Positions 44,500 through 47,587 of a stretch of 48,369 nucleotides of DNA are shown piece after piece (within the stretch, counting starts at the first letter, position 1; the number at the start of each line of letters is the position of its first letter). The DNA lies in NCBI GenBank assembly GCA_937896695.1, contig CALBOT010000096.1:1-48369 (forward strand). The letters are read 5' to 3'. The DNA comes from an uncultured Candidatus Nitrosopelagicus sp. Its GTDB lineage: Archaea > Thermoproteota > Nitrososphaeria > Nitrososphaerales > Nitrosopumilaceae. A program made the position numbers and the translations under genes. The notes beneath the pieces are model-generated. The model saw only the letters and a program-made list of their open reading frames with translations. It ran no database searches and was not told the DNA's origin.

Positions 44500-44928
44500 T
44501 TGATGGGATTAACTGAGGCCGATGCCAAAGCTCTAGTAAATGAAGGGATTTTGTCTGCAGATTATGATGAACATGAAGAAGCAATAGAATTTTACGACAA
44601 GGCTCTAAAAATTGTAGAAACCTCAGAAACCTATCTGAACAAAGGAATTTCTCTTGTAGAACTAGAAAAATATGAAGATGCTGTAACATGTTATGATAAG
44701 GCAGCAACAATTGATACTAATGATTCTCTAATCTGGTATAACCGCGGTGTTGCACTAACGCAATTAGAAAAATATGATGATGCATTGTCAAGTTATGAAA
44801 AGGCAATTGACGTATCACCTGGTTATGCAGATGCATGGTATAACAAAGCAGAACTTTTGAAACATAAGGGTCAAGATGCAGAAGCAGAAACCTGTTTTGC
44901 TAAAGTTAAGGAATTAGAAGGAGAATAA
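44500..44928 (+). CDS. Tetratricopeptide repeat protein
   Basis: Repeats of WYNRG...YDDAL..YEKAI..P. Confidence 0.92.
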   Translation: MMGLTEADAKALVNEGILSADYDEHEEAIEFYDKALKIVETSETYLNKGISLVELEKYEDAVTCYDKAATIDTNDSLIWYNRGVALTQLEKYDDALSSYEKAIDVSPGYADAWYNKAELLKHKGQDAEAETCFAKVKELEGE

Positions 44929-46098
44929 TTGTCTTCGTCGTTTTATTATAATAGCAGCAATCATACTTACAACAACTCCAATTATTACATATACTATAGT
45001 TAAATTATTTCCAGACTCGTTAGACGTAAACTTTGTAACCTCTTCTAGTGGTGCTTCAGAGATACGAATTATCTTGTCATTGTCTCCATTTGCTGTTAGT
45101 AGATACAATACTCCATCAGGACCAATCTGTGCTGTGCGAATTCTACCAAAGTCACCTTCAAACATTTTTTCTGCACTGATTAAAGAACCATCTTTTGCAA
45201 TATCTAAAACCATCAAATGCTGTCCTCTTAAGGCTCCAACCAAAAACTTGTCTTCAAAACTAGAAATTTTATCTGAATTGTAAAACACCATTCCACTTGG
45301 TGCCCATGTTGTTTGTCCACTATGTGTGATTGGATTTACAAAACTGTCATCAGATGAATCACCTACAACTTTTGGCCAACCATAATTTTTTCCCTTTACA
45401 ATTACATTGATTTCGTCATGACCATAACCCATTTCTCCAGATGGTCCATGCTCTGATGACACAAGCAAACCATCTTCATTCCATGCAATTCCTTGTGGAT
45501 TGCGATGACCATAAGAAAAAATTGCACTTGAATCAAATGGATTGTCATCAGGTATTGTTCCATCTGGATTAATTCTTAAAATTTTTCCTGCCAGTGATGA
45601 CAAATCTTGTGACCATCCAGGATTAACTGCATCTCCTGTTGTTATGTACAGTTTTTCATCAGGACCAAATGCAATTCTCCCACCGTCATGCCATGGCGCA
45701 CCTGGTATGTCATCAATTACTGTCTGCATATCTACCAGTTTGTCTCCGTCAACTGTAAAGCTAAAAACTTTGTTTTGGAAAAATTCCAGTTCTAGATTTG
45801 TCTGATAAATGTAAATTTTCTTGTTCTCTTCAAAATTTGGATGCAAGGCAAGGCCTAACGTTCCTCCCTCATATGATCCGCTCTTTGGGAATGTTTGAAT
45901 TACTTTGGCTTCTCCAAAATTTTCAATTTTCCACACACGTCCGTCTCTTTCTGTAAAGTAAACGTCTCCGTTTGGTGCAAAAACCATTTCCCATGGGTTA
46001 TTCAACCCGTCAACTATTACATCAACATTCATTTCTCCAAATGCTGGAGCAATCAATGAAACAAATGCAATGCAAATCAACAGAACAAAACGTTTCAT
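44914..46098 (-). CDS. PQQ-dependent glucose/sorbosone dehydrogenase family, exported and C-terminally anchored
   Basis: GLNNPW, HDGGRIAFGPD, YGHRNPQG, NYGWP and GRIR. Signal peptide from MKRF at 46098. Confidence 0.92.
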   Translation of the reverse strand: MKRFVLLICIAFVSLIAPAFGEMNVDVIVDGLNNPWEMVFAPNGDVYFTERDGRVWKIENFGEAKVIQTFPKSGSYEGGTLGLALHPNFEENKKIYIYQTNLELEFFQNKVFSFTVDGDKLVDMQTVIDDIPGAPWHDGGRIAFGPDEKLYITTGDAVNPGWSQDLSSLAGKILRINPDGTIPDDNPFDSSAIFSYGHRNPQGIAWNEDGLLVSSEHGPSGEMGYGHDEINVIVKGKNYGWPKVVGDSSDDSFVNPITHSGQTTWAPSGMVFYNSDKISSFEDKFLVGALRGQHLMVLDIAKDGSLISAEKMFEGDFGRIRTAQIGPDGVLYLLTANGDNDKIIRISEAPLEEVTKFTSNESGNNLTIVYVIIGVVVSMIAAIIIKRRRQLFSF

Positions 46099-46159
46099 GA
46101 TTAAAACATGCATTTTTTGCTTAAAATCCTATGCAAATTTATAAAATTTTTCTTGCTTC

Positions 46160-46362
46160 ATAATTCGGCGTTCAAATGAACTTTATCTCATCACTATTTG
46201 AGGAAGTCAGAGAGAACCTCGTCTAATCTATAATCATCAGCAAATAGTACAACATGCATTGACTATTTAGAATCACTCATTTGTAATGAAACCCCGAAAA
46301 GGCAACAAATGTTGCCTCTTCAGGCAGAGAAATTAATCTCCTGTTGGCGTGCAAACCAATAG
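46160..46362 (-). ncRNA. Candidate structured non-coding RNA, family not recognised
   Basis: No sizeable ORF. Serial hairpins pair fully only on the minus strand through G-U pairs; C/D-like boxes in the 3' half; BRE/TATA-like element at ~46396-46383. Confidence 0.6.
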
Positions 46363-46433
46363 AAATTATCAATTTTAATTCAAACTAAAACCTTTCTGAT
46401 AACAATGAAATACTCTTTTGATTAATCATAGAC

Positions 46434-46727
46434 ATGGTGTATGCTTGGATAATTCCAATTTCATTAGTAGCAATTTTAGGAATATCTGGATATCTTGTAT
46501 ATCGATATGTGATTTTTGACATCTTGGCAAACAGCTCAATCAATAACACCTTGAAACGATACAACATCAAAAAAACACAGTTTGAGATAATCAAAGAGTT
46601 TAACGAATTGAAAGGCGAAACACTATCTGATTCGGAAATTAAACGCTTAGCAAAACATTATCGCCGAAACGAACCTGATCAATTCCTATCAATGTATGAT
46701 CATTTACGAGATAGATCAAAAAATTAA
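46434..46727 (+). CDS. Membrane-anchored hypothetical protein
   Basis: N-terminal TM; YRRNEPDQFLSMYD. Confidence 0.8.
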   Translation: MVYAWIIPISLVAILGISGYLVYRYVIFDILANSSINNTLKRYNIKKTQFEIIKEFNELKGETLSDSEIKRLAKHYRRNEPDQFLSMYDHLRDRSKN

Positions 46728-47587
46728 TCTTCTGTTGGAATATTTATGAAAGGAGTTCCACCTTCGCCAACTACTAGTGGTAGTTTTCCATCCCATGCTT
46801 GTGTCTTTAACCACTCAATGTAGTATGGATTGTTTGCAAGTGCTTCGTTGATGATACGAATGGCTTCTGCCTCACCTTCTGCCTCTGCAATGTTACCCTT
46901 TGCAGTTCCTTGCGCTCTGGCTTCAAACTGTTCTGCTTCTACTTGAATACGTCTCAAGTCATTTTCTGCTTTGAGTGCTTTTTGTTCTGCTTCTACTTTG
47001 GCTTCAATTGCTTGTGCAAAGAGTGGTGAGAATTGAAAGTCTGTAATTGATACAATTTCAGTTGTAATGTTAAAATCATTAAGACGCTCGCCAATTTCTA
47101 CTTCAATGTCTGCTTTTACTTGTGGTCTCTTTGTGATTAATTCTTCAGCGTTATAGTTTGCAGTTACCTGTTTTACAACTTCTTCTACAGTTGGTTGAAT
47201 AACACGATTCTCATAGTCTAAACCAACCTCTTTGTATAGATAGTTAACAGAGTTTGGACTTGGATGATAGTTTACTGTAATTTCAGTTGAGACTGTCTGC
47301 AAGTCTTGTGATGCCGACGTTGTCGACTTTGTATACTTTAAGGTACGAACTTCAAGTGGAATTACTGAATCCTGGAACGGAACTATAAAGTGCAACCCTT
47401 CTTCAAGTGGTGGTTGTGTTACATCTACTGCATTCCAGTGTAGCAAAACGCCTCTGTATCCTGCGTCTACAATTGATACTGCAGAGCCTATTACTACGCC
47501 TATAATGATTAACACAAGAATTCCTATTACCACTCCCTTTGCCTTTCCAACGTTTACTTGGACTGGTCTATTTTGATATTTTGACAA
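46724..47587 (-). CDS. Prohibitin / SPFH (band 7) family protein
   Basis: EGLHFIVPF, SQDLQ, AEELITKR, AIEAKVEAEQ and WDGKLP. Confidence 0.95.
   Translation of the reverse strand: MSKYQNRPVQVNVGKAKGVVIGILVLIIIGVVIGSAVSIVDAGYRGVLLHWNAVDVTQPPLEEGLHFIVPFQDSVIPLEVRTLKYTKSTTSASQDLQTVSTEITVNYHPSPNSVNYLYKEVGLDYENRVIQPTVEEVVKQVTANYNAEELITKRPQVKADIEVEIGERLNDFNITTEIVSITDFQFSPLFAQAIEAKVEAEQKALKAENDLRRIQVEAEQFEARAQGTAKGNIAEAEGEAEAIRIINEALANNPYYIEWLKTQAWDGKLPLVVGEGGTPFINIPTED

Follow-up and report, generated by a model that had tools for sequence, protein, structure and literature searches.

The gap analyzed here lies on contig C96 of genome G000, within a 48,369-nucleotide stretch of DNA that as a whole is called the window. 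It is bordered downstream by a glucose/sorbosone (PQQ) dehydrogenase gene, which is not beside the element at two other loci (L016 and L021), and upstream by a divergent gene for a 97-aa protein (Table 1). An SPFH/Band 7 gene at 46724-47587, on the minus strand, is convergent with the latter. The gap stretch is single copy in G000 and has matches in 28 of 36 genomes of the same genus and, weakly, in 1 of 24 genomes from other families.

Table 1. Features of the gap and its neighbors, in window coordinates
Feature	Position	Strand	Basis or remark
Glucose/sorbosone (PQQ) dehydrogenase	44914..46113	-	PF07995, E 2.6e-85; downstream neighbor, outside element
RNA-B, box C/D guide sRNA, 89 nt	46154..46242	-	Conserved boxes, guide pairing
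RNA-B box D (AUGA)	46161-46158	-	
RNA-B D guide	46169-46162	-	
RNA-B inserted hairpin	46181-46170	-	
RNA-B box C'	46193-46188	-	
RNA-B box D'	46210-46207	-	
RNA-B D' guide	46220-46211	-	
RNA-B box C	46239-46234	-	
RNA-B promoter, TATA-like TTCTAAATAG	46263..46272	-	AT-rich box at same distance upstream of box C
RNA-A, predicted ~75-nt small RNA, undescribed family	46286..46361 (3' end ~46286)	-	z −5.43; model R2 matches
RNA-A 3' hairpin, 14 bp, then U-rich tail	46293..46324	-	Two-sided changes
RNA-A optional middle hairpin	46325..46343	-	Absent or much longer in other copies
RNA-A helix 1, loop UUGCAC (46354-46349)	46344..46359	-	Compensatory changes; these 16 bp form the core repeat of island ends in relatives
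RNA-A promoter, BRE/TATA-like GAAAGGTTTTAGT	46384..46396	-	TATA-like box at fixed spacing in homologues
97-aa protein	46434..46727	+	No Pfam match; divergent upstream neighbor, outside element

A first-pass annotation had described the gap as devoid of credible open reading frames and as a structured noncoding RNA of the minus strand. Both descriptions hold, given that no ORF of at least 50 aa lies inside it (a 69-aa minus-strand ORF merely touches position 46385) and that the stretch 46120-46400 folds with a z score of −3.92 on the minus strand versus −2.23 on the plus strand. The fold signal is confined to 46286-46361 (z −5.43 on the minus strand and −3.42 on the plus strand), with values of −0.15 for the linker at 46243-46285 and −0.12 for 46154-46242. 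The seven consecutive hairpins that the annotation proposed can all be written from the sequence. Since the signal comes entirely from 46286-46361, the first three are real; the remaining four are unsupported as parts of one RNA. Hairpins 4 and 5 straddle the 3' tail of one unit, RNA-A, and the promoter of a second, RNA-B, while hairpins 6 and 7 include, respectively, box C and the D' guide of RNA-B.

Comparison with homologous loci bore out the expectation of conservation and compensatory change in relatives, but for two units rather than one. Among 25 aligned loci, 14 contain the whole tandem, one (in G018) is interrupted, and 10 divergent loci of the same genus contain the 3' half, RNA-B, alone among other genes, with RNA-A sited elsewhere in such genomes. 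Records assigned to Ca. Nitrosopelagicus show the same tandem arrangement, and in other genera both RNAs are present tens to hundreds of kilobases apart; the two stand side by side only in one branch of the window's genus. The occurrence of the halves apart in other genomes, together with the 748-aa gene that parts them in G018, contradicts the single ~200-nt RNA originally proposed. That gene (L050:1575-3821) encodes a secreted-looking pentapeptide-repeat protein, and its insertion point falls precisely between RNA-A and the promoter of RNA-B. We consider it highly probable that the gap holds two conserved units that can be separated, each a predicted small RNA gene with transcription of its own. 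This confidence covers the explanation as a whole; the helix-35 partner of RNA-A discussed below is, taken alone, a tentative proposal.

RNA-B and its predicted rRNA targets

Between the terminal sequences UGCU and AGCA, RNA-B contains box C (UGAUGA), box D' (CUGA), box C' (UGAUGA), and box D (AUGA), in this order. Across 16 aligned loci, C and D' are invariant, C' is nearly so, and D is invariant as AUGA rather than CUGA. Judged by the features set out in the available part of PMC3608112, RNA-B qualifies as a C/D guide. The label of an unrecognized family therefore fails for the 3' half of the gap and is retained for the 5' ~75 nt only; the first-pass annotation, which missed both the second promoter and the C/D boxes, placed its 3' boundary at 46160, within box D. 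An AT-rich box is found ~25 nt upstream of RNA-B, also where RNA-B stands alone, and stays in place after the insertion in G018.

The 3' 15-mer of RNA-B was found in 45 of 120 family genomes, of which about four are chance one-mismatch matches, and its reversed control in none. Orthologues in other genera are canonical guides of 57 to 63 nt, and the window copy, at 89 nt, has a hairpin inserted in its D guide. Because G000 contains no assembled rRNA, targets were sought in relatives, using G036 numbering. The best site of the D guide was the same 23S cytidine (C1808 in G036) in 12 of 12 sRNA/rRNA pairs. The 12-nt orthologous D guide was equaled by 1 of 300 shuffles, and the 8-nt D guide of the window, taken alone, is at chance level (163 of 300). 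For the D' guide of the window, nine Watson-Crick pairs can form at 23S 1413-1421 in G036, a result equaled by 47 of 300 shuffles and at a site not kept in G027; the best candidate nucleotide is A1416, with alternatives near 1742 and 1804. Among lineages with a differing 23S site no compensated D guide was found, the variant matches being devoid of C/D boxes. Taken together, the boxes and the pairing predict that RNA-B directs 2'-O-methylation of 23S C1808 (Cm1808) through its D guide. It would load L7Ae, Nop5, and fibrillarin, all of which are encoded in G000.

Three genomes contain two C/D paralogues each (L140 and L027 in G027, L275 and L287 in G064, L291 and L292 in G140), with the same D guide and different D' guides. 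One member has a D' guide to 23S ~1824 and the other is of the window's type, a pattern that points to guide duplication and retargeting. Separately, the 23S rRNA gene of G045 (L040) has a ~600-nt insertion after the position matching G036 23S 1417, within the very loop in which the RNA-B D' guide has its best target. This insertion probably represents an intron that could encode a protein.

The N. maritimus genome paper reportedly lists a few candidate C/D sRNAs. No description of RNA-A or RNA-B was found in the literature searched, although RNA-B may already be predicted for N. maritimus.

Architecture and distribution of RNA-A

RNA-A is predicted to be transcribed from the promoter element at 46396-46384, with a start near 46360. 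Both had been proposed in the first-pass annotation, and both are supported by the TATA consensus that homologues share at fixed spacing; by eye, the promoter also resembles the regions upstream of G000 tRNA genes. The product would be an RNA of 55 to 105 nt, its fixed loop presented on helix 1 and its end shielded by a strong 3' hairpin. Two-sided changes were observed at 13 of the 14 pairs of the 3' hairpin, amounting to 57 two-sided cells against 21.4 in shuffled alignments (0 of 500 reach the observed value) and at most 29 in slid controls. In helix 1, five further copies, from one subclade of genus g24, read (C/U)AGG...CCUG, with both outer pairs changed in compensation (U-A to C-G and U-A to A-U). 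The covariation of helix 1 is probably one event, and single changes break one of its pairs in a few other copies. The compensated outer pairs reduce the fixed core to GGU-UUGCAY-GCC, the near-invariant 5' stem-loop.

Counting over 135 distinct contexts of the 16-mer, in which close relatives are not independent and positions 6 to 10 are fixed by the filter, 99 had a strong 3' hairpin. A TATA-like box at −32 to −23 from the motif accompanied 93 of 98 full copies versus 14 of 35 partial ones. In 85 of the 99 full copies the hairpin folds better on the strand of the predicted RNA, and G-U pairs make up 151 of the 1,416 pairs in these hairpins.

The RNA-A 16-mer TTGGTTTGCACGCCAA, with one mismatch allowed, is present in 43 of 74 family genomes versus 2 of 176 in other families, against two control matches in all. 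Model R2 finds RNA-A in 19 of 26 genomes of the same genus, G000 included, and in 74 of 101 genomes of g24; model R1 finds it in 43 of 121, a count that is sequence-driven. In genomes without the 16-mer, R2 produced weak matches in 1 of 5 and 8 of 40, one of them real. The motif with its architecture was also recognized in Nitrosopumilus, Nitrosarchaeum, Nitrosomaritimum, and Nitrosopumilaceae records, and no convincing copy was seen in at least 10 genera of the family among the genomes searched. Among the matches listed, at least 120 in all, those from outside the Nitrosopumilaceae lie mostly within ORFs and are without the RNA-A architecture in the rows inspected. The architecture is also absent from all seven matches to position-1 variants in a metagenome scan. 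Four single-contig g24 genomes (G166, G264, G398, and G225) have not even the 12-nt core, which indicates that RNA-A is dispensable.

Some copies deserve separate mention. The closed genome G102 has a complete RNA-A gene at each of L055 and L082, and the two differ in their 3' hairpins. At L501 (G270, genus g35) and L502 (G244, genus g33), in genera otherwise without RNA-A, an intergenic 12-nt core occurs without a clear 3' hairpin or promoter; these are putatively chance or decayed copies. None of 24 argS loci in other genera has RNA-A beside it.

Known RNA classes were compared with RNA-A one at a time. No C or D box is present in alignment A1 (33 copies). An ACA follows the hairpin in 10 of 66 copies and A-N-A in 18 of 66; neither an H/ACA pocket nor a K-turn or K-loop was found, most 3' hairpins being uninterrupted stems of 13 to 16 bp, with a possible UGA..GA pair in 15 of 66. 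A tRNA, whether split or permuted, is not indicated either, as no tRNA model matches, D- and T-arms are lacking, and the loop has 6 or 8 nt, not 7. RNase P and SRP RNA, already discounted in the first reading of the gap, are rejected given the full-length copies of both (RF00373 and RF01857) on other G000 contigs. A riboswitch or leader was rejected on account of the downstream neighbors, which are a convergent argS, RNA-B, or unrelated genes, and a Xer/dif site on account of a distance of 5 to 44% of the chromosome from cdc6 and up to six copies per genome. The Rfam check that the annotation had called for returned nothing at gathering score for the window region, eight homologous loci, or a variant copy, the best match in the window region reaching 24.5 bits against a cutoff of 39.9. 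The aligned sequences give solid comparative support to RNA-A as a family with clear bounds and covariation that is not represented in Rfam.

Elsewhere in G000, a strong intergenic hairpin on contig C149 (minus strand, about 3005-2955; 13 bp plus a 4-bp lower stem) ends in CCC-ACA-UUU and is a candidate H/ACA-like or otherwise unannotated small RNA.

Probable integrative elements at the RNA-A gene

Extra RNA-A copies retain just the first 16 to 19 bp of the gene and continue into a different tail. In three genomes two copies of this core form direct repeats, 20.5 kb apart in G274, 7.9 kb in G252, and 0.9 kb in G413. The islands between them have a promoter-like box at both ends and the native RNA-A hairpin at only one. 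An integrase or its remnant lies head-to-head ~50 bp from the repeat in G274 and G252, and in these two genomes direct repeats bound an element with an integrase at one end, the arrangement taken here as the mark of an attB site. The G274 integrase has 30% identity (E 5e-26) to a PF00589-positive protein, and R/HxxR/H/Y motifs were seen by eye in the island integrase, for which PHROGs and PDB gave no match and a single-sequence fold had a pLDDT of 39. These repeats and motifs make it likely that the first 16 bp of the RNA-A gene serve tyrosine-integrase elements as an attachment site. An integrating element would supply a replacement promoter to the RNA-A gene, and we infer from such restoration that expression may be under selection.

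A tblastn search of G000 found no relative of the island integrases, which implies that the RNA-A motif is kept there for another reason. No PF00589 match was obtained in G000 or G036; the same profile also missed the island integrases, so that the negative in G036 is weak. In viral contigs, 12 motif matches were found, none with the promoter-plus-hairpin arrangement.

The available part of PMC6563490 describes tRNA genes of Thaumarchaeota as targets of tyrosine integrases, with att cores of median 17 bp, a single use of a 5' end (tRNA-Ser), and 15 sites classed as intergenic. The supplementary rows examined from that study contain no site with the RNA-A motif (0 matches on either strand). As far as the sites are described in that part, those at RNA-A resemble them in their short att cores, their tyrosine integrases, and the restoration of the target gene; unlike the tRNA sites, they would lie at the 5' end of a small RNA gene that does not encode a tRNA and that has its promoter supplied anew. 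For another published intergenic att motif, no comparable element was found in G000. Some "intergenic" integration sites in these archaea may be unannotated RNA genes.

Promoter-less RNA-A cores with a common palindromic tail were observed at L086-L091, L094, L098, L100, L208, L210, and L216. They are scattered among variable genes for membrane and regulatory proteins, a genome having as many as five or six, and are possibly the ends of an integrative or nonautonomous element family.

Candidate partners of RNA-A and known systems

The 8-nt loop of RNA-A is the exact complement of 23S 866-873, a site present in 25 of 27 23S loci. This rRNA loop, which we take to be that of helix 35, at the exit tunnel, is closed by a stem with a G-C to A-U change of its own; helix 35 is heavily modified in bacteria. 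Our best guess for the function of RNA-A, put forward tentatively, is that its loop would pair with the helix-35 loop, loop to loop, during large-subunit assembly. Chance provides a perfect rRNA complement for 140 of 1,680 loop permutations (8%), and the energy of the best RNA-A/rRNA duplex is equaled by 53% of 60 shuffles. When three natural variants were compared at 69 sites, all of them improved the pairing at one, helix 35; this test was post hoc, and five copies found later, in which the flanking changes preserve helix 1 and not the rRNA pairing, weaken it. The dispensability of RNA-A also sits uneasily with a ribosome-assembly role. A pairing with 23S 1321-1328 was dropped since the compensated copies change those bases. 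In its fuller form, RNA-A would be the first of a box-less class of archaeal sRNAs pairing with the helix-35 loop, acting as a chaperone or as a guide for an unrecognized modifying enzyme, its gene valued and its promoter rebuilt by elements, a proposal that we regard as speculative and rather unlikely as a whole.

For the partner step only, a close rival, itself rather unlikely, is that helix 1 mimics the tRNA-Ala(UGC) anticodon arm, serving as a ligand or decoy for an enzyme that modifies tRNAs or for an anticodon nuclease. Eight bases, UUGCACGC, are identical to the anticodon arm of the G000 tRNA-Ala(UGC), the longest run among its tRNAs, and a 5-bp stem kept by compensation with fixed loop-adjacent sequence suits recognition of shape plus sequence. 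Such an accessory role fits the dispensability of RNA-A, and integrases centered on anticodon loops occur. The loop, however, has 6 or 8 nt instead of the 7 of a tRNA, the pairs of the helix are one base out of tRNA register, there is no D- or T-arm, and no candidate protein was identified. Proteins with an RRM, known to bind a similar loop of U1 snRNA, were rejected as partners, being found in 0 of 121 family genomes. The RNA-A loop is also complementary over 6 nt to the anticodon loops of tRNA-Cys.

It is improbable that RNA-A and RNA-B are co-transcribed in this clade from the promoter at 46396 as one ~205-nt RNA or precursor. The tandem is kept in 14 close loci, and hairpin 5, in the linker, is partly retained in some close relatives, which leaves room for read-through from RNA-A to RNA-B. 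RNA contigs from 8 of 21 listed marine runs cover parts of the region; several cross the predicted RNA-A start and some, including X12-1 and X6-7, bridge RNA-A and RNA-B, with ends and strand that are not readable. The bridging contigs, however, also reach past the RNA-A start on its upstream side and may derive from DNA, and read-through from the SPFH/Band 7 gene could explain contigs that cross the RNA-A promoter. Against a long transcript, moreover, are the flat z score of the linker, the unlinked halves elsewhere, and the AT-rich box that RNA-B keeps for itself despite the gene inserted in between.

That RNA-A acts as an antisense regulator, on an mRNA or on SRP RNA, is a reading of similarly low probability. 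RNA-A can form 12 contiguous pairs, three of them G-U, with SRP RNA in 4 of 5 genomes, but the pairing is broken in G027, where the RNA-A motif is unchanged, and it depends on bases that are altered in the compensated copies. Apart from this, G000 has just eight perfect complements of at least 10 nt, none of them near an identifiable annotated start.

That RNA-A is a DNA recombination site (dif-like or an att scar) next to a terminator, and not an RNA, is very improbable. In favor of this reading, the core forms an inverted repeat around an 8-bp spacer, is present in as many as six copies per genome, and borders integrase islands; the fixed-spacing TATA box, the strand-biased G-U hairpin, the differing identity and orientation of the downstream genes, the lack of island-integrase relatives in G000, and a distance to cdc6, taken as the origin marker, that varies across five closed genomes between 5% and 44% of the chromosome, as that of dif would not, argue against it.

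The Nitrosopumilaceae are abundant marine nitrifiers, and their small RNAs are almost uncharted in the searchable literature. RNA-A, as an undescribed family absent from Rfam, comes with a testable partner and natural loss-of-gene strains, and its role as an integration site is unexpected. The pairing proposed for RNA-A has a counterpart in the eukaryotic snoRNA chaperones U8, U14, and snR30, which pair with rRNA, carry C/D or H/ACA boxes, and are essential. Like them, RNA-A would pair transiently with pre-rRNA without modification; unlike them, it is box-less and missing from some closed genomes. In comparison with the archaeal sRNAs covered by the available part of PMC3608112, RNA-A lacks the boxes of the C/D class and resembles single-hairpin H/ACA sRNAs in its size, in its 14- to 16-bp hairpin near the 3' end, and in the ACA of some copies. 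It differs from H/ACA sRNAs, as described there, in having no conserved pocket or K-loop and in carrying its conserved sequence 5' of the hairpin.

The large-subunit region targeted by human SNORD50A/B is presumably the same as that of RNA-B, and we take human Cm2861 to lie ~8 nt 3' of the position matching C1808. The accessible portion of a preprint (bioRxiv 10.64898/2026.09.11.751006) presents SNORD50A/B as a dual C/D guide and reports on Cm2861; identity of this nucleotide with the RNA-B target was dropped, since by the primers printed there the two would not coincide. RNA-B agrees with the archaeal box C/D sRNAs of the available part of PMC3608112 in the order of its C, D', C', and D boxes, in the position of its guides on the 5' side of D and D', in its short terminal stem, and in a predicted 23S rRNA target at +5. 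It departs from them, within what that part covers, in its AUGA box D, in a D'-C' spacer of 13 nt, and in a D guide that an inserted hairpin, itself covarying among relatives, shortens to 8 nt; its 89 nt also exceed the ~50 to 60 nt that are typical, not obligatory, of such sRNAs. RNA-B is thus ordinary in kind, and adds to this class a predicted 23S methylation and a hairpin-interrupted guide.
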